Shown one piece after another: positions 31,877 to 58,692 of a stretch of 64,000 nucleotides of DNA. The position numbers and the translations under genes are program-made. This stretch comes from a virus. Positions within the stretch are counted from its first letter, which is position 1. Each line of letters starts with the position of its first letter. The notes beneath the pieces are model-generated. The model was given only the letters and a program-made list of their open reading frames with translations, had not been told where the DNA came from and did not search any database. The stretch spans positions 1 to 64,000 of IMG/VR virus record IMGVR_UViG_3300031746_000002. The stretch is one strand, 5' to 3'.

Positions 31877-31919
31877 TAACCATCAATAAATTTTTACCAA
31901 GAAAGCTTATTAATATATT

Positions 31920-45817: not shown

Positions 45818-46447
45818 ATGCTTAAAAGTCTTTGGGACAGGGTTAGAAACAATGAGGCTACAGAAGAAGAACGAAATGCATTTGCTAGCGAAATTAAAAT
45901 TATTGTTAAAGCGCGTAAATCAAAAATCAATAAAGAAGTCGCTAGAAGTACCATGAGAGAGTATGATGATTTATTAAATGAAGTTTGTAATCATACTTAT
46001 ATGTGCGTCATAAAGTACAAATATAACTCTAAGATTACAACAGTTGTTTATAAACTAGTAGACCAATACACTATTTATCTATACAGGAAAACAAGACGTA
46101 ACAAAGTTATTCCTCCTGAGTTAATAGATACTTTTACATCATCTCAACGTCCTGAAAATTTACGATATTTTAGAAACGATCCCAATAATGAAAATTTAAG
46201 CTTTGATGAAGTATTAGCAAATAAAAAAGATTGTGTTGAAAATGATTTAATATACGATAATTACATAGAAAAAATAAAAGGGGTTTTAATAAAAAATCAT
46301 GACACTGTTTCATTAAAAATACTTGAAGGAAAATTAAAAGGATATACTGATGCAAAGATAGCTAAGACATTAGGAGTAAGTACACCCAAAGTAAATTGTA
46401 TTAAACGGGAAAATCTTATGGAGGCTGTTTCACAAGTATTATGCTAA
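45818..46447 (+). CDS. Phage RNA polymerase sigma factor-like protein
   Basis: Region-2-like YDDLLNE...IKYKY and C-terminal HTH GYTDAKIAKTLGVS. Confidence 0.65.
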   Translation: MLKSLWDRVRNNEATEEERNAFASEIKIIVKARKSKINKEVARSTMREYDDLLNEVCNHTYMCVIKYKYNSKITTVVYKLVDQYTIYLYRKTRRNKVIPPELIDTFTSSQRPENLRYFRNDPNNENLSFDEVLANKKDCVENDLIYDNYIEKIKGVLIKNHDTVSLKILEGKLKGYTDAKIAKTLGVSTPKVNCIKRENLMEAVSQVLC

Positions 46448-47853
46448 ACCTTTATATTAATAATCTGATAAGATTTGATAGTACATCTATTTCATCGCAA
46501 CTATATGAAATATTGAAGCAGAGGTTTACCTATTCAAATCCAGAATATTATAAACAAAAAGCAATGGGATTTTATGTGGGACATACTCCACAAAAATTAT
46601 ATACACATTTCATTGACCGTAATATCATTGCTTTTTCTAGAGGTACTATTAGTGAATTACGAAAAATACTTGATGGGAATGGCGTTCAATGTAAAATATA
46701 TGATGAACGAAAAGAAGGACATAAAATATCATATAGGTTTGAACGTAACATAAACCTTTATCCTTTTCAAACACAAGCAATAAATGATTTATCAGCTAAA
46801 ACACAAGGTATATTAATAGCACCTCCAGGAGCTGGTAAAACAATAATGGCTATGGGTGTAATTAATAAACTTAAAAAATCTACTTTAATCATTGTTCATA
46901 CTTCAGAATTGTTAAGACAATGGAAAGAGCAGATACAAGAAAAAACAAATCAAAAGACAATAGGACAAATCGGTGCTGGTAAATATCAATTGGAAAATAT
47001 AACTATAGGAATGTTACAAACATTGACTAAAGTTAATAAAACAAAAATGAAAGAAATAAATAACTTTTTTGGTATAGTTATAACAGATGAATGCCATCAT
47101 ACTCCGGCAAATACACTGTTCTATTTTTTAAATTCTTCTGAAGCTAAATATCGTTATGGTTTAACAGCAACACCAAAAAGAAAAGATGGTAAAGAATTTT
47201 TGTTGAAAGATACAATAAGCCATCATAGCATTGAAATTACTAATAGTGACTTAGAGCAGCATGATCAGTATGTTGCTGGAGATGCAGAATTTATTTTTGA
47301 TAGTAATTTTATGTATGATATTGCAATGGATGATGAAGTTAAAGCAGACTGGAATATGGTCATTGATGCAATGATAAGTAATGAAGGCAGAAATCTTACA
47401 ATTGTTAATGAAATAATAAAGGATATAGATGCTGGCAGATTAATTTTAGTTCTAACTACACGTGTAGAACATTGTCAAAATCTGCAAGCAATGTTAGAGG
47501 AACGGGGATATAAATGTGAAGCAGTTTATGGTGACCCAGAAAAGCATCATAGAGAAGCTGCTCTACGAAGAATAAAAGAAGGTCAAAGCAGAGTAATGGT
47601 AGCTACAGAAAATTTAGCAGCAGAAGGACTTGATATTCCAGAATTAGATACATTACATCTTGTTATACCAACTACTAATAAATATAAATTAAAACAAATG
47701 ACTGGTAGGATTAGACGTAAGTACGATAAGAAACAATTACCTTTAGTTAAGGATTATGCTGATATAAAAATAGGTGAATTAAAAGGTGCAGCTAAGAAGC
47801 GATTAAAGATATATAAGGATTTAGGATTACACATACGAAATATTTTCTTATAA
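46441..47853 (+). CDS. SF2 DEAD/DEAH-box helicase (UvsW/Rad25-like)
   Basis: APPGAGKT, DECHH, GLTATP, EGLDIP and QMTGRIRR motifs. Confidence 0.92.
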   Translation: MLNLYINNLIRFDSTSISSQLYEILKQRFTYSNPEYYKQKAMGFYVGHTPQKLYTHFIDRNIIAFSRGTISELRKILDGNGVQCKIYDERKEGHKISYRFERNINLYPFQTQAINDLSAKTQGILIAPPGAGKTIMAMGVINKLKKSTLIIVHTSELLRQWKEQIQEKTNQKTIGQIGAGKYQLENITIGMLQTLTKVNKTKMKEINNFFGIVITDECHHTPANTLFYFLNSSEAKYRYGLTATPKRKDGKEFLLKDTISHHSIEITNSDLEQHDQYVAGDAEFIFDSNFMYDIAMDDEVKADWNMVIDAMISNEGRNLTIVNEIIKDIDAGRLILVLTTRVEHCQNLQAMLEERGYKCEAVYGDPEKHHREAALRRIKEGQSRVMVATENLAAEGLDIPELDTLHLVIPTTNKYKLKQMTGRIRRKYDKKQLPLVKDYADIKIGELKGAAKKRLKIYKDLGLHIRNIFL

Positions 47854-52230: not shown

Positions 52231-53241
52231 ATGCAAATTGATGTTAAAGAAATTTTAGATAAGTATAGTATTGAAATAACAGGTGAAACGCGAGATGAAT
52301 ATATTTGTGGATGCCCATTTCATGAAGATAAAACACCTTCATTTTCAATAAATAAAGAAACAGGTTTATGGATATGTTTTACATGTAATTCTTTAGGCTT
52401 AGAAGAAGGTAGTGGTAACTTTGTTAAATTAGTAATGTTATTAGAAAGTTGTTCATATGAAAGTGCAAAGAAAATAATATATAAGAATGAAGATGCAGAA
52501 ACAGTAGTAGAACGATTAACAAAGAAAATAAATAATGTTATTAACAAGGAGCATGAAGTAATAATAAAGAATTTAGATATAAAGATTGAATTACCACAAG
52601 AGTTTGAACTTTTTACTGATATAAAACAATGTCCCAAATATTTATTAAATAGATTACATTGGAAAACGATAACACATTTTAAATTAGGTATTTGCAGAGA
52701 AGGATATTATAAGAACAGAATTATTATTCCAATATATCATAATGAAGAAATTGTTGGTTTCCAAGCAAGATGGATAGGTAATGCTGATGAAGCTGAAGTA
52801 AAAAGATATTTATTTGCTTCAGGGTTTGTAACAAATAATTACTTATTTAATTATGATGGGGTTAAAGATTGTAAAGCACTTATACTTGTTGAAGGTTCTA
52901 TAAACGTTATGAGTATGCGGGAAAAGAATTTTAGTGCTGTTGCAGCATTCAGTGCTAAAGACTTAAGTATAAGACAATTAAAATTATTAGTTGATCTCGG
53001 TTTAGATGAATTAATAATCTGTTTTGATAATGATAGAAATAATGTTGGTCAAACTTCTGCTAAAAGGAATATGAAAAAATTAAGAAATTATTTCGATGTT
53101 TCAATAATGTCATTACCATTAGAAAAAGATCCAAATGATTTAGATGAACAGCAATTGAAAGCAATTTATAATTCAAGATATTATGAAAAGAGAACTTTAT
53201 GGCTAAAATCGTTGATTATGGCAAACTCTTCAGAAGAGTAA
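52231..53241 (+). CDS. dnaG: DNA primase (CHC2 zinc finger + Toprim)
   Basis: CPFHEDKTPSF...CFTC, RIIIPI, LVEG, FDND and KDPND motifs. Confidence 0.92.
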   Translation: MQIDVKEILDKYSIEITGETRDEYICGCPFHEDKTPSFSINKETGLWICFTCNSLGLEEGSGNFVKLVMLLESCSYESAKKIIYKNEDAETVVERLTKKINNVINKEHEVIIKNLDIKIELPQEFELFTDIKQCPKYLLNRLHWKTITHFKLGICREGYYKNRIIIPIYHNEEIVGFQARWIGNADEAEVKRYLFASGFVTNNYLFNYDGVKDCKALILVEGSINVMSMREKNFSAVAAFSAKDLSIRQLKLLVDLGLDELIICFDNDRNNVGQTSAKRNMKKLRNYFDVSIMSLPLEKDPNDLDEQQLKAIYNSRYYEKRTLWLKSLIMANSSEE

Positions 53242-53984
53242 GACCTTCTGTTAGTACTTCATCTTTAGGTAGATACTTTGCTTGTCCAGCATCATATTAC
53301 AAACAATATGTACTTCGAGAAGAATTTGCAGAAGAGAAAGGAATACCAGCTATCAGAGGCATTGCTATACATAAATGTCTTGAAGATTTTTATAATTCAG
53401 GAAACTTCGATAGACAAAAGCTTATATCTAGTTGGAAAGAAACATTTGAATATGTGATGAAAAAGGAAAAAGTAGTTATTCCTGAAAATGAACAGAAGAA
53501 AATATTAACTGAAGGTTATCAAATGTTAAATTCATTTTATAATGAACAGGAAAGAGATGGATTACTTAAAAAGCCTTTATTCAATGAAAAATATTTAAAG
53601 ACTGTTTATAGGGGTGTAGTTATCAAGGCTAAAGTTGATATGATTATCAACTGGAAAGATGAAATGTATATCTATGATTTTAAAACAAACTGGCATAAGT
53701 TTGGTAATAAAGAGCTTAATGAAAACCTCCAAGCTCATTTAAATTTATGGTTGTATAAAGCTACATATGGAAAAGAAGCTAAATTTTGTTTTCATTTTAT
53801 TAGATTAAAACAAAGACAATTTATAGAAAAATTAAATGAAAAATTATTATTAGATGTAATTGATAAGTTATTAAATGCTCATATAGATAACAATTTTCCA
53901 ATTGAACCAACAGACTGTAAATACTGTATGTATCAAAGCAGATGCGAACGTTTTACTAAACAAAAAACTATTAAAATCTGCTGA
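53199..53984 (+). CDS. PD-(D/E)XK exonuclease, Cas4/AddB-like with Fe-S cysteines
   Basis: CP, RGIAIH, KVD...DFKT and CKYCMYQSRC motifs. Confidence 0.85.
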   Translation: MAKIVDYGKLFRRVRPSVSTSSLGRYFACPASYYKQYVLREEFAEEKGIPAIRGIAIHKCLEDFYNSGNFDRQKLISSWKETFEYVMKKEKVVIPENEQKKILTEGYQMLNSFYNEQERDGLLKKPLFNEKYLKTVYRGVVIKAKVDMIINWKDEMYIYDFKTNWHKFGNKELNENLQAHLNLWLYKATYGKEAKFCFHFIRLKQRQFIEKLNEKLLLDVIDKLLNAHIDNNFPIEPTDCKYCMYQSRCERFTKQKTIKIC

Positions 53985-54001
53985 AATTCTGCTGAAATAA
54001 A

Positions 54002-54014
54002 GCTTAATAATTAA
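54002..54014 (+). promoter_or_regulatory. Promoter motif GCTTAATAATTAA
   Basis: Exact repeat of the 41454 and 58673 copies; upstream of the histone-fold gene. Confidence 0.6.
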
Positions 54015-54045
54015 TTGAAAGGAAATAATAAAGGAGGTGAAAAAG

Positions 54046-54309
54046 ATGGCAAGGGTAAGCGGAGCAGGCAAGGGAAACAAACCAGAAAAGGTTGAGATGG
54101 TCCTTATGAAATCAAAAGTTTACAGGCTAGTTAAAGGTGAGCTTAAGATGAGGATATCTGCTGCATGTTTTGAAATAATCTCAGCAAGAGTTATAACAAT
54201 GATAAAACAAGCTGCTGAGCAAACAAAGGTAGATAAAAGGGAAACTATCAAACCAAGGGATTTTGATGCAGCTGCAAGGGCTGCAGTAGCAGGAGAAAGT
54301 AAAGAGTAA
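54046..54309 (+). CDS. Histone-fold protein (bacterial/archaeal type) with N-terminal tail
   Basis: VLMKSKV..LVK (helix 1), MRIS (L1), long helix 2 ending AAEQTK.DKRETIKPRDF (R.T..P.D L2/helix 3 signature). SD AGGAGGTG before ATG 54046. Confidence 0.82.
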   Translation: MARVSGAGKGNKPEKVEMVLMKSKVYRLVKGELKMRISAACFEIISARVITMIKQAAEQTKVDKRETIKPRDFDAAARAAVAGESKE

Positions 54310-54341
54310 ATAGAGGAACAACGAAAAGGAGGAAAGTAAGT

Positions 54342-54779
54342 ATGAGTATTCAGGCTGATTTAAAGAAGTTAAGGGAAAAGAAGAAAGAGATTGCGGCAAA
54401 AATTACAAAGTTATTTGAAGAAAGAGGAGCAAATAACAAAAAGATTGCCGAACTCAAAGCAGAAGCATCAAAGGAAAAGAAAGCAGCAGCAAAGGAAGCA
54501 AAGGAAACAAAAGCAGAAAAGAAAGAAAAGAAAGTTGAAAAGAAAGAAGCAAAGAAAGAGACAAAGAAAGAGGCAAAGAAAGAGGCAAAGAAAGAAGAAA
54601 AGAAAGAAGAAAAGAAAGAAACAAAGAAAGAGGCAAAGAAAGAAGTTAAGCCAGAAAAAACAAAAGAGAAAACAAAGCCAGTAGACCCAGATGATGAAGA
54701 TGACAAAAAAGCACCAGCGGAAAAAGAAGAAAAGAAAGACGAAAAAAAGAAAACTGCTGATGAAGGCGATGACGAATAA
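54342..54779 (+). CDS. Coiled-coil + KKE(A/T/E)-repeat protein with acidic tail
   Basis: 12-bp AAGAAAGA(G/A)NNA repeats; DPDDEDD and DEGDDE tail; SD AGGAGG. Confidence 0.7.
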   Translation: MSIQADLKKLREKKKEIAAKITKLFEERGANNKKIAELKAEASKEKKAAAKEAKETKAEKKEKKVEKKEAKKETKKEAKKEAKKEEKKEEKKETKKEAKKEVKPEKTKEKTKPVDPDDEDDKKAPAEKEEKKDEKKKTADEGDDE

Positions 54780-54807
54780 ACTTTAAATTATCCGGGTAAT
54801 TTAAATG

Positions 54808-54844
54808 GGGTGGAGTAGCTTAAACCCTACTCCACCCATTTTTT
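54808..54844 (+). terminator. Rho-independent terminator
   Basis: GGGTGGAGTAG/CTACTCCACCC 11-bp stem plus ATTTTTT; preceded by a near-palindrome at 54782-54805. Confidence 0.85.
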
Positions 54845-54859
54845 CAAAGGAAAACTAAC

Positions 54860-55351
54860 ATGAAAGATAACAGACAAAACGTTCACGAATTCTATATTGG
54901 TTTAGCAAAACAAATAGCTTCAAGGGGAACATGCTTACGCAGGCAGATAGGAGCTGTTTTAATTAAAGATGGTATTATATTAGCAACAGGATATAATGGA
55001 CCGCCATCAGGGTTAGCACACTGCGATAAATGTTTTCGCATAACTAATAATATCCAAAGCTCAACACGTTTAGAATTTTGTAGAGCAGTACATGCTGAAG
55101 AAAATGTATTAATTCAATGTGCTATAAAGCAGACAAATCCCACTGGTGGAATTTTATATTGCACACATTCTCCTTGTGTTACTTGTGCAAAAAGTATTAT
55201 TCAAGCTAAAATCAGTGCTATTATATATGATGAAATTTATCCAGATGAATTGACTCAGCAAATGATAGGAGAGTCTTCTGTATTATTTTATCAAGTTAAA
55301 ACTCCTAACTTAGATACTTTATTAAAACTTAAAGGACAAACATTAATATGA
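54860..55351 (+). CDS. dCMP deaminase (ComEB-like)
   Basis: CLRRQIGA, TGYNG, HAEEN and SPCVTC motifs. Confidence 0.93.
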   Translation: MKDNRQNVHEFYIGLAKQIASRGTCLRRQIGAVLIKDGIILATGYNGPPSGLAHCDKCFRITNNIQSSTRLEFCRAVHAEENVLIQCAIKQTNPTGGILYCTHSPCVTCAKSIIQAKISAIIYDEIYPDELTQQMIGESSVLFYQVKTPNLDTLLKLKGQTLI

Positions 55352-55884
55352 TAATCATTGTTGAAGGAATAGATGGTACTGGCAAAACTTATTTTTGTAA
55401 ATATATAGCAAAAAAATATGGCTTTAAATATATTCATGCACCAAAACCAAAGAAACCTTTCGATGAATTTGCTAAAACAGTTACTGCTAAGTACAAAAAA
55501 TTAATCAAAGATAATTTAAAAAAATATGTTATTTTTGATAGATCATTTTATAGTGAATATGCTTATAATTATAATAGGACACATAAATACATAGAGCAAT
55601 TTGAAAAATTATTAAATGTTAATTACACTGTTATATTATTTACTCTATCTCATTTAGGTATCAGGCGAACATTTAATAAATATATTGCTAATCATCAAGC
55701 TTTTGATAATCAAAATAAGTTTGCAAGAAAAGTAGCAGTACAACAGCGATATATTTATATTTTGGGAAAATCAAGACTTGCAAGTAAATACATAATAAAT
55801 ATTCCAGACACGCTTGATAAACTTGGTACAGGATATAAAAAAGCACAGAATACAGCTTTAAGAATTATTGAGCATATAATATGA
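55348..55884 (+). CDS. Thymidylate-kinase-like dNMP kinase
   Basis: IVEGIDGTGKT and FDRSFYSEYAY motifs. Confidence 0.85.
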   Translation: MIIIVEGIDGTGKTYFCKYIAKKYGFKYIHAPKPKKPFDEFAKTVTAKYKKLIKDNLKKYVIFDRSFYSEYAYNYNRTHKYIEQFEKLLNVNYTVILFTLSHLGIRRTFNKYIANHQAFDNQNKFARKVAVQQRYIYILGKSRLASKYIINIPDTLDKLGTGYKKAQNTALRIIEHII

Positions 55885-56891
55885 AATTAGATAATTACTA
55901 CAGTGAAATAACCAGAGTACGAGAAAAGATGTCACCTATCTCTATTTGCATTTATCCTACAAACCGATGTTCATGTAAATGTATAATGTGCGATGTACAT
56001 AAAATACAAGACAAAGCAGACTTACCTTTTGATAAATTATTAGATGTAATTATTATGGCGCATCTAATGAAAGTAGAAAGCATCGTTTTCATTGGTGGTG
56101 GCGAACCAACACTTTACGATCATCTTCCACATATAATAGAACATATAAATGAATTTACACAGATGTCAATGGGAATTCTTACAAATGGTAATACAAATTT
56201 TAATTTTGGTTGTGCTGCAAAAAACTATCGTATGAAATTTATAAGATTTTCAATAGATGCAGTTAGTAAAGAACTTTATAAAAAAATACGAGGAGCAGTA
56301 CTTGATAAGGTACTTAATAATTTCAGTACTGTTTTAAATGTTGCTCCAGAAAAAACTAGAATAAATGCTTTGATTATGGATGAGAATATATTTGATGTAA
56401 AGAACTTAATTGATTTTGCAGCAGATAATCATACAACTATTAATTTTACATTAGCAGTGAATTGTAATAGTTTTAAGAATAAAATAAAAATCAATGAACT
56501 TACAAGGTTACAATATTATAAAAGTTCTTGCCATAATTTAAACATACTATTTGAGAAGCATGAATTAATAAATAAACACGAATGTGTATTACCTTTAATA
56601 TACGCTGTAATTGATGCAAAGGGAGATGTGTTTCCTTGTACAATAGCAGCTCAAAGTTTGGGTATTAATATTGATAATAGAGATGTTATATTAGGTAATA
56701 TATGTCAAGATACATTTAGTAGTATCTGGCTTCGTTCTGGGACACGAAGACTGAACATGTCTAGTAATCCTGATAAATTCAATATTTGTCGCTGGTGTAA
56801 CAGGGGTGGTATATCTGCATGTAAACTAAATATGCAGTATAGAAATGAATATGAAACATTGAAAAGTCTTCACAAGGCAACATTCTTATGA
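55881..56891 (+). CDS. Radical SAM protein with SPASM/twitch domain
   Basis: CSCKCIMC (Cx3Cx2C), GGGEP, TNG, FSID, C...GDVFPC...CRWC. Confidence 0.9.
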   Translation: MKLDNYYSEITRVREKMSPISICIYPTNRCSCKCIMCDVHKIQDKADLPFDKLLDVIIMAHLMKVESIVFIGGGEPTLYDHLPHIIEHINEFTQMSMGILTNGNTNFNFGCAAKNYRMKFIRFSIDAVSKELYKKIRGAVLDKVLNNFSTVLNVAPEKTRINALIMDENIFDVKNLIDFAADNHTTINFTLAVNCNSFKNKIKINELTRLQYYKSSCHNLNILFEKHELINKHECVLPLIYAVIDAKGDVFPCTIAAQSLGINIDNRDVILGNICQDTFSSIWLRSGTRRLNMSSNPDKFNICRWCNRGGISACKLNMQYRNEYETLKSLHKATFL

Positions 56892-57502
56892 AACAACAAA
56901 TGATAGAAAACGAAAGATTAAAAACAGTTAGAAATCAACTACAAAGTTGCAAGCAATGTGAACTTTCAAAGCTTGAAATAAATAAACAAGATGAGGATTA
57001 TCCAGACAGAGGTAAAGTCTTTTCAACGGGTTATTCTGATGCAAAAATAATGTTTATAGGAGAAAGTCCATTTTTTAAAAGAGTAGTGGGAAATGATGGA
57101 ATAATACGACCATTTAATTTTGGTAATGAATATGAAGATAATGTTGGGTCTGGTAAAATACTTTTTAATATTTTATGGAAACTCAATGTAAAACGAGAAG
57201 ACATTTACATTACAAATTTAATCAAGTGTTCTTACAATGAAAAGTTACGAAAAAATATTCAAAAATATTTTGCTGAATGTTTCTTCTTAACAAAGCTTGA
57301 AATAGCTTTAGTAAAACCAAAAATAATCTTTTTATTGGGAAATGAAGTACATCAATTTTTTGAAACACATAAGCTGATGTCAATCATTCCTGAACAAATA
57401 ATAGCAATATCACATCCTGCATTTATTTATAGAAGTCCCGGCTTTAAAACTAAATATGAAGGTATTATAAAGCATCATTTAACAGAGGCGGGTTTGATAT
57501 GA
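56888..57502 (+). CDS. Uracil-DNA glycosylase family 4-like (Fe-S)
   Basis: CKQCEL, IMFIGESP, YITNLIKC, LLGN and HPAF motifs. Confidence 0.85.
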   Translation: MKQQMIENERLKTVRNQLQSCKQCELSKLEINKQDEDYPDRGKVFSTGYSDAKIMFIGESPFFKRVVGNDGIIRPFNFGNEYEDNVGSGKILFNILWKLNVKREDIYITNLIKCSYNEKLRKNIQKYFAECFFLTKLEIALVKPKIIFLLGNEVHQFFETHKLMSIIPEQIIAISHPAFIYRSPGFKTKYEGIIKHHLTEAGLI

Positions 57503-58685: not shown

Positions 58686-58692
58686 ACTACTC

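Follow-up and report, generated by a model that had tools for sequence, protein, structure and literature searches.

The locus described here lies in IMG/VR virus record IMGVR_UViG_3300031746_000002, a 138.9-kb sequence with a CheckV completeness of 68%, the first 64 kb of which (positions 1 to 64,000) are hereafter called the window. It consists of two adjacent genes on the plus strand, the first encoding an 87-amino-acid (aa) histone-fold protein (gene 1) and the second a 145-aa protein rich in lysine and glutamate (gene 2), together with the signals expected for their expression:

53978-53998, + strand: tandem direct repeat CTGCTGAAAT, two exact copies 11 nucleotides (nt) apart; it overlaps with the stop of the PD-(D/E)XK nuclease gene that precedes it
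53999-54014, + strand: phage-specific promoter-like motif AAAGCTTAATAATTAA, a recurrent motif also found upstream of the histone gene of a related metagenome contig, L002
54033-54037, + strand: Shine-Dalgarno sequence GGAGG of gene 1, 8 nt ahead of the ATG
54046-54309, + strand: gene 1, 87-aa histone-fold protein of the alpha3/HBb type (profile, model and selection evidence)
54328-54332, + strand: Shine-Dalgarno sequence GGAGG of gene 2, 9 nt ahead of the ATG
54342-54779, + strand: gene 2, 145-aa Lys/Glu-rich protein (open reading frame, charge, repeat and L002 orthologue)
54808-54844, + strand: intrinsic terminator with an 11-bp stem, an 8-nt loop and a T-run (terminator scan; the hairpin itself spans 54808-54837)

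Gene 1 runs from the ATG at 54046 to the TAA at 54309, and its product begins MARVSGAGKGNK; this start was chosen because the alternative GTG at 54037 overlaps the ribosome-binding site and because the homologues begin with MA[RK]. The protein can be divided into a basic tail (residues 1 to ~15), the fold proper (16-73) and a variable C-terminal extension (74-87), the last of these being the short C-tail seen in the original prediction, which was made from the DNA letters alone. The same prediction recognized a histone-fold pattern recalling Bd0055, the histone HBb of Bdellovibrio bacteriovorus, in the strings SKV..LVK, MRIS and KRETIKPRD. All of these strings are present, and the assignment holds up, with HBb being among the closest solved relatives by profile, Foldseek and VIA-align comparisons. 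In phmmer searches of Protein Data Bank (PDB) chains with the single sequence, the HBb chains 8cmp (E 4.2e-4) and 8fvx (E 5.7e-4) scored best, followed by HTkC and HLp. A family profile constructed from the window protein and five close relatives (P0002-P0006) matched HTkC 9f2c at 2.2e-9, HBb 8cmp at 6.2e-9 and 8fvx at 8.4e-9, and also retrieved HLp 9qt0 (1.1e-5) and HmvA (1.5e-3). Furthermore, the comparison of the histone gene with its L002 orthologue (nonsynonymous divergence pN 0.22, synonymous divergence pS 0.68) indicates purifying selection. The gene 1 product belongs to the alpha3/HBb (Bd0055) type of histone-fold proteins, and gene 1 is the sole histone-fold gene in the 138.9-kb record.

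Close relatives of this protein are few. An exhaustive HMMER search over 1.84 billion representative proteins yielded nine matches at E<=1e-3, namely, four close singlets (P0003-P0006; 76-85 aa, 49-63% identity), a repeat protein taken as spurious (P0007), three doublets of ~130 aa and one Gly-tailed singlet. A wider profile that included distant matches recovered 2365 proteins at E<=1e-3, some of which are labelled 'histone H3/H4' by JGI and some of which are assigned to Bacteriovoracia or Peredibacter. The viral contig collection, the phages of GenBank (tblastn, E<=1) and the species-representative genomes yielded no relatives of gene 1, and the only metagenome contigs found to carry such relatives are L002 and L003.

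When run on the single sequence, AlphaFold2 produced one long, uninformative helix; this result was superseded by a model built on a 33-sequence alignment, which comprises helices at residues 22-32, 39-62 and 70-84 with a mean pLDDT (predicted score in the local distance difference test) of 78, exceeding 90 over residues 21-70 and falling below 50 for residues 1-12. Helix 3 runs to residue 84, with block-mean pLDDT values of 79 and then 53, and residues 74-87 are not conserved. The comparison with Bd0055 and H3-type chains proposed in the original prediction came out in its favour: the model has the helix-loop-helix-loop-helix arrangement, HBb ranks first, and by VIA-align HBb (Z 8.0-8.3) is tied with CENP-A/H3 chains, with HLp at Z 7.6. 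Specifically, the top four Foldseek matches are HBb chains (root-mean-square deviation 1.0-1.2 Å over 57 columns, target-normalised template modelling score 0.83-0.87), and all Foldseek matches listed are histone or histone-fold chains; the E-value is only 6e-3, which is modest because the protein is short (~60 residues). The viral structure library returned giant-virus histones and unnamed viral proteins, with weak E-values.

The alignment with HBb is gapless over residues 17-73, reaching from helix 1 as far as the beginning of helix 3, and helix 2 is of the same length in both proteins; in the HBb type, this helix is about one turn shorter than its counterpart in nucleosomal histones. We compared the DNA-contact and dimer-contact residues by matching the phmmer alignment to the account of HBb in Hu et al. 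(2024; PMC11317129). Seven of the 12 DNA-contact residues of HBb are identical (S9, K10, K16, S24, A25, T53 and R57), two have basic counterparts (K22 for T8 and R36 for N22), and three differ (K12 corresponds to Y26, T23 to I37 and K52 to E66). The RD clamp of HBb, R51/D58, is represented by R65/D72, and D49 by D63. The HBb dimer contacts V11, L31, I35, L38 and I59 correspond to V25, I45, V49, M52 and F73, so that the hydrophobic contacts are kept. The RxTxxxxD motif of Schwab et al. (2024; PMC11390915), made up of a loop-2 arginine, a threonine that binds DNA and the aspartate of the clamp, is present as R65, T67 and D72; across the family, the arginine and the threonine occur in six of six members and the aspartate in five, P0002 having a histidine at this position.

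These features allow the protein to be placed among the described histone classes. According to Hu et al. (2024; PMC11317129), HBb represents the 'bacterial dimer' class of alpha3-truncated histones (PDB 8cmp, 8fvx, 9ezz and 9f0e). The gene 1 protein shares with it the gapless core alignment, the RD clamp, the loop-2 threonine, the helix-1 Ser-Lys and the loop-1 Ser-Ala, as well as the lack of the residues that hold together the tetramers of face-to-face (FtF) histones, but differs in its low identity (~30%), its phage origin, a basic N-tail of 15 residues and a C-terminal extension of 14 residues, modelled as a helix. As described by Schwab et al. (2024; PMC11390915), who defined the alpha3 histones, a separate 'phage histone' class carries a C-terminal tetramerisation helix. 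Unlike these proteins (A0A2E7QIQ9 type, or VTTHFP), which are devoid of RxTxxxxD, the gene 1 protein possesses the motif and has no long C-terminal helix domain, ending 14 residues after the fold. A closer counterpart appears in the IMG/VR survey of Liu et al. (preprint 2024; hLife 2025), which, as summarized there, reported 84 bacterial-like histones in Caudoviricetes and named a Bd0055-like viral class. In common with that class, gene 1 is a tailed-phage gene from IMG/VR and its product has a Bd0055-like fold with a C-terminus predicted to be a helix rather than a loop; unlike the class as described in the available text, it has an N-terminal tail and a conserved neighbour gene. In that text of the hLife paper, the word 'neighbor' does not occur and 'adjacent' occurs once, in another sense, and no mention of a partner gene was found. 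The closest named cellular relatives appear to be the doublets of Bacteriovoracia (Bacteriovorax; described in PMC11789641), with 36-40% identity over ~70% of the query. These are cellular proteins of ~132 aa with two fused folds, whereas gene 1 encodes a singlet, and the ranking of distant relatives favours doublets in that two domains score twice.

The original prediction likened the N-terminal tail of gene 1 to those of eukaryotic H3 and H4. In all six family members, the fold is preceded by 7-17 Lys/Ser-rich residues including 2-8 Lys/Arg, and in four of them the tail starts with M-A-[RK]-[VI]-[SN]. This start, the lysines and a K-P are the only tail features common to the homologues. The GAGKGNK run is found in the window phage only, the homologues having SKSSKESK, SKTCSGNK, NKSEKAT, KKAKKKNGEK and KKAN, so there is no conserved H3/H4 tail sequence. 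Thus, the tail itself stood, being basic throughout the family and disordered in the gene 1 model, whereas its H3/H4-like wording did not. The accompanying statement that most prokaryotic histones are tailless is outdated for the alpha3 family: according to Schwab et al. (2024; PMC11390915), positively charged tails are a frequent feature of the bacterial FtF histones, and Liu et al. (hLife 2025) describe tails 5-40 residues long and rich in lysine in FtF-type proteins of viruses, a description that also fits the family studied here. Hence, the tail is real, yet neither eukaryote-like nor unprecedented, and it probably provides an extra grip on DNA. No gene for a GNAT acetyltransferase, a SET-domain protein or HU was found in the record, which is weak evidence given that the record is 68% complete.

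Gene 2, which extends from the ATG at 54342 to the TAA at 54779, encodes a protein with a conserved N-terminal helix segment (residues 1 to ~45, net charge +5), a stretch of KKEx repeats (46-108, +13) and an acidic C-terminal part (109-145, -7). The KKE(A/T/E) repeats noticed earlier correspond to a 12-nt tandem array of 13.3 copies (54518-54677) encoding KKE[A/T/E], after which comes the Asp/Glu-rich end. About one residue in four to five is glutamate, which keeps the net charge per residue low. The description of gene 2 as a charged protein with an acidic tail is accurate for the last 37 residues, but the protein as a whole is basic (+11, isoelectric point 9.4). With this net charge and no match to H1, Hc1 or any chaperone family, the proposed role as an acidic chaperone or linker-like protein is not supported. 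Indeed, no Pfam family (H1 and Hc1 included) was matched at E<=1, and no PHROG was matched. The ESM Atlas model is a long helix of low confidence (pLDDT 0.62), and the structure matches in this atlas are just other long helices. The protein resembles H1, chlamydial Hc1 and the PF07432 H1-like proteins of 'moraphages' (as presented in PMC12619734) in being Lys-rich, of low complexity, probably extended and, as in the latter case, encoded by a large phage, but is unlike them in the lack of a Pfam match, in its glutamate-rich composition with low net charge per residue and in its acidic tail.

The L002 orthologue of gene 2 (132 aa) follows the histone gene at the same spacing, and the two proteins share 66% identity in an alignment of the first 56 residues (E 2e-13). 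Over these 56 codons, pN is 0.20 and pS 0.72, indicative of purifying selection, and the repeat differs between the two phages in both sequence and length, with KKE[ATE] in the window phage and KKVE in L002. No relatives outside L002 were found by word-index search with residues 1-48, among ESM Atlas features or in scans of viral and genome contigs. Judged by its codon-level conservation, gene 2 is a real, constrained gene, and its position, conservation and charge pattern suggest that it may encode a second DNA-associated or histone-associated protein. A further resemblance concerns residues 1-48 (window 54342-54485), which weakly match helix 1 of six NCBIfam chorismate-mutase models (E 0.0012-0.037), scoring 15-19 bits against cut-offs of 69-107 for the five models restricted to chorismate mutase and 13.8 bits against 279 for the bifunctional one. 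Chorismate mutase (AroQ) was rejected as a function for gene 2, considering that only helix 1 was matched, below the cut-offs, that there was no such match for the L002 orthologue and that Pfam CM_2 is absent from the record; the resemblance is probably due to chance. Two further open reading frames (ORFs) overlap gene 2, one of 118 aa in antisense (54350-54706, - strand) and one of 97 aa in the +2 frame (54391-54684, + strand), and both are by-products of the purine-rich 12-nt repeat rather than genes.

The view of the locus as a self-contained unit of two genes with strong Shine-Dalgarno sequences and an intrinsic terminator is borne out by the ORFs, the GGAGG sites and the hairpin, and the arrangement is also kept in L002. 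The gap between the genes is 32 nt and contains no terminator, and the terminator after gene 2 is common to both. Its stem consists of 11 pairs, seven of which are G-C, and is followed by ATTTTTT. A terminator scan of 3 kb returned two sites against 0.9 expected, both corresponding to the same hairpin, one per strand. These signals suggest that gene 1 and gene 2 are co-transcribed. The predicted promoter motif is present as a strand-specific, recurrent sequence, although it is specific to the phage and bears no sigma-70 consensus. A sigma-70 scan showed no plus-strand site just upstream of gene 1, and the motif at 53999 could not be fitted to -35/-10 spacing. The motif, AAAGCTTAATAA, occurs in 13 copies on the plus strand and none on the minus strand of the 138.9-kb record (<=1 mismatch), compared to 2-10 copies in 20 shuffled sequences. 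It has the form AA[AG]GCTTA[AT]TAA(TTAA), with window copies at 31902, 38264, 53999, 58670 and 63998. Nine of the 13 copies fall between genes, at a distance of 18-45 nt from the start that follows, in most cases that of a small gene. Given that one copy heads a tRNA-Leu gene at 58692, the motif is best understood as a transcription signal rather than a translation signal, and it likely represents a phage promoter class.

In L002, the gene order is the same as in the window (primase, nuclease, histone, KKE protein and dCMP deaminase), so that the search for the gene pair in other phages, suggested along with the original prediction, did find the pair side by side. The upstream layout is also alike, with a tandem pair, then AAAGCTTATTAATTAA and then the ribosome-binding site, and a hairpin with a T-run lies at the equivalent place downstream, its stem differing in sequence. 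The two copies of CTGCTGAAAT upstream of gene 1 are the only exact copies in the window. The tandem pair at the equivalent place in L002 (1178-1199) has another sequence, TTAGTTGAAAT / TTAGTTGAAAA. Both copies have changed together between the phages and are identical or nearly so within each phage. The tandem repeat is possibly a regulator site or an upstream promoter element, and its pattern of change suggests a two-site binding element co-evolving with a phage-encoded regulator.

The histone/gene 2 unit belongs to a region, within the genome of a large tailed phage, that is devoted to replication and nucleotide metabolism. The G+C content of the window is 29-35%, and 59 of its 68 ORFs of at least 100 aa are on the plus strand. 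Family searches identified the upstream neighbours of the histone gene as a DnaG-type primase and a PD-(D/E)XK nuclease, and gene 2 is followed by genes for a dCMP deaminase, a thymidylate-kinase-like P-loop protein, a radical-SAM/SPASM protein and a uracil-DNA-glycosylase-family protein. Beyond the shared dCMP deaminase, L002 (2442-5222) and the window (55348-57502) differ in gene content: the former carries ORFs of 359, 305 and 264 aa, the second of them radical-SAM-like and the third with a glycine motif resembling that of methyltransferases, and the latter the kinase-like, radical-SAM/SPASM and uracil-DNA-glycosylase-family proteins. A putative DNA-modification cluster thus seems to have been swapped between the two phages. 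Six kb upstream of the histone gene, a 470-aa ORF (window 46441-47853) contains a SNF2-related helicase domain, which scores 24.6 bits, barely above the cut-off once its in-frame neighbours are added.

Taken as a whole, the locus is probably best explained as a phage copy of an HBb-type alpha3 histone that organises phage DNA, with gene 2 co-transcribed. Two copies of the histone would pair through antiparallel helix 2, a homodimer being expected because gene 1 is the only histone-fold gene in the record. Like HBb, the dimer would bind DNA without sequence preference, via minor-groove contacts with the backbone, and bend or compact it, with the Lys/Ser-rich disordered tail of 12-15 residues adding electrostatic grip. 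In view of the position in the replication block, the promoter-like motif and the strong ribosome-binding site, the histone is most likely an abundant product that coats or organises phage DNA as it replicates. Gene 2 would contribute a Lys/Glu-repeat protein that is confined to this lineage, is largely helical and ends in an acidic stretch. Several observations weigh against this explanation. The score for Pfam PF00125 (Histone) is 13.4 bits against a cut-off of 26.4 (E 0.096), that for NCBIfam NF043032 (archaea_histone) is 14 against 50 (E 0.053), and the best PHROG match (E 0.015) is a family with no assigned function. PF00808 (CBFD_NFYB_HMF) matches four of the six family members, with a best E-value of 0.016, and a scan of the phage's own genome with this model gave no match at E<=1. 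The sub-threshold Pfam and NCBIfam scores reflect how far these models reach and do not speak against the fold. In addition, the DNA contacts K12 and K52 of HBb are lost (Y26 and E66), the position of the latter being variable within the family, and helix 3 of the model is 15 residues long, compared to the single turn of 3-4 residues that defines the alpha3 truncation, although confidence drops in this region. A full-text literature search found no expression or bench data for phage alpha3 histones. Finally, the link between the two genes rests on a single informative relative, as L003 ends 6 nt after the histone gene; it is a putative link of position, namely, a shared transcript suggested by the signals and joint retention in L002.

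Among the rival explanations, some concern the class and the target of the histone. That gene 1 encodes an FtF-type alpha3 histone, a class characterised by a torus-shaped tetramer built through helix 3 and the end of helix 2, is decidedly unlikely in our estimation, even though the best profile match among the solved chains is HTkC 9f2c, marginally ahead of HBb, and HLp is matched as well. As portrayed in PMC11390915 and PMC12701072, the bacterial FtF histones (HLp of Leptospira perolatii, 9qt0; HTkC, 9f2c) and their viral counterparts (VFFHFP) share with the gene 1 protein the alpha3 fold, a positive N-tail and similar profile scores, and the Lys-rich N-tail is a stated hallmark of the viral class. 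However, the FtF dimer-dimer contact is ascribed to two residues, R48 and N52 in the numbering of the FtF logo, the former 6 and the latter 2 positions ahead of the arginine of the motif (Schwab et al., 2024; PMC11390915); in the gene 1 protein, Q59 and D63 stand at the equivalent positions. The six family members carry Q, Q, Q, R, K and N at position 59 and D, D, E, D, E and D at position 63, so that the asparagine is absent from all six and the arginine present in only one. Because the equivalents of R48 and N52 are not kept, the protein would group with the 'bacterial dimer' class, described as being without both contact residues; Foldseek and VIA-align also place HBb first, by margins that amount to ties. 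We also consider it unlikely, if less so, that the histone is a weapon against the host, made early to compact or silence the host nucleoid or to displace host nucleoid proteins, similar to over-produced Hc1-type proteins that shut down transcription. This possibility draws on the small size of the gene and its own promoter-like motif, which also heads several small genes without annotated function across the genome, and on the consideration that a non-specific DNA binder alone cannot distinguish phage from host DNA; given that the adjoining cluster resembles a DNA-modification pathway, phage DNA could be either a poorer or a better substrate. However, the gene lies within the replication and nucleotide-metabolism block rather than in an obvious early host-takeover block.

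The remaining rivals concern gene 2. The 'chromatin operon' of the original prediction, with a modifiable H3/H4-type tail and gene 2 as a dedicated chaperone or H1-like linker that binds the histone, is very improbable. The pair is adjacent, co-oriented, served by a common terminator and kept in L002, the acidic part of gene 2 (-7) could mask the basic face of the histone while the Lys-rich repeat (+13) could bind DNA, and a SNF2-related ORF lies 6 kb upstream. Yet the GAGKG string of the tail is not shared by the homologues, neither a GNAT acetyltransferase nor a SET-domain gene was found in the incomplete record, and gene 2, besides being basic overall, has no counterpart among H1, Hc1, nucleoplasmin-type or other families. 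Furthermore, SNF2-type helicases are widespread, and the same search matched 14 of 14 control genomes. A minimal, previously undescribed phage chromatin system, in which the histone coats phage DNA and gene 2 loads, spaces or restrains it, appears decidedly unlikely to us as well; it would amount to a histone plus linker or chaperone in a virus of prokaryotes. Here, the Lys-rich helix of gene 2 would lie on DNA and its acidic end would compete for the DNA-binding face of the histone, and the pair might tell modified phage DNA from host DNA, the operon adjoining a probable DNA-modification cluster. By contrast, the chances are not far short of even that gene 2 acts independently of the histone, as a spacer or single-alpha-helix protein, as a DNA mimic through its acidic end or as a remnant of the first helix of a chorismate mutase. 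In agreement with such independence, gene 2 shows no similarity to any histone partner, is lineage-specific, being found only in the window phage and L002, varies in its repeat region between the two, and has the faint chorismate-mutase resemblance noted above. Nevertheless, in L002, the only relative that shows this region, it follows the histone gene directly and is accompanied by the same signals, and the chorismate-mutase matches are far below the cut-offs and do not recur in the L002 orthologue, with residue 11 being R in the window phage and W in L002.

Bacterial histones were recognised as functional DNA organisers only in 2023-2025, and phage copies are known solely from computer surveys. 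Phage Bd0055-type histones have already been catalogued computationally, and the locus adds a new example of a subfamily that is rare, considering that 1.84 billion representative proteins yield only four close relatives. The conserved Lys/Glu-repeat neighbour is potentially the only new element. With a short gene, clear expression signals, a conserved basic tail and a conserved neighbour, the locus is a clean candidate for the bench. Should the neighbour and the histone work together, this would be the first description of a histone partner from a phage; otherwise, the locus remains a well-documented member of a rare subfamily.

With regard to the host, the phage DnaE is at most 32% identical to any entry of the GenBank phage collection, and no host could be named. 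The suggestion that the histone points to a histone-bearing host is unsupported, as it depends on a few doublets named as Bacteriovoracia in a ranking that favours doublets. No RNA run is among the public runs that share words with the region around the locus (window 53200-55400). Three public runs, of which one may be the source sample, carry at least half of the words sampled from this region, and all three are labelled sediment metagenome.

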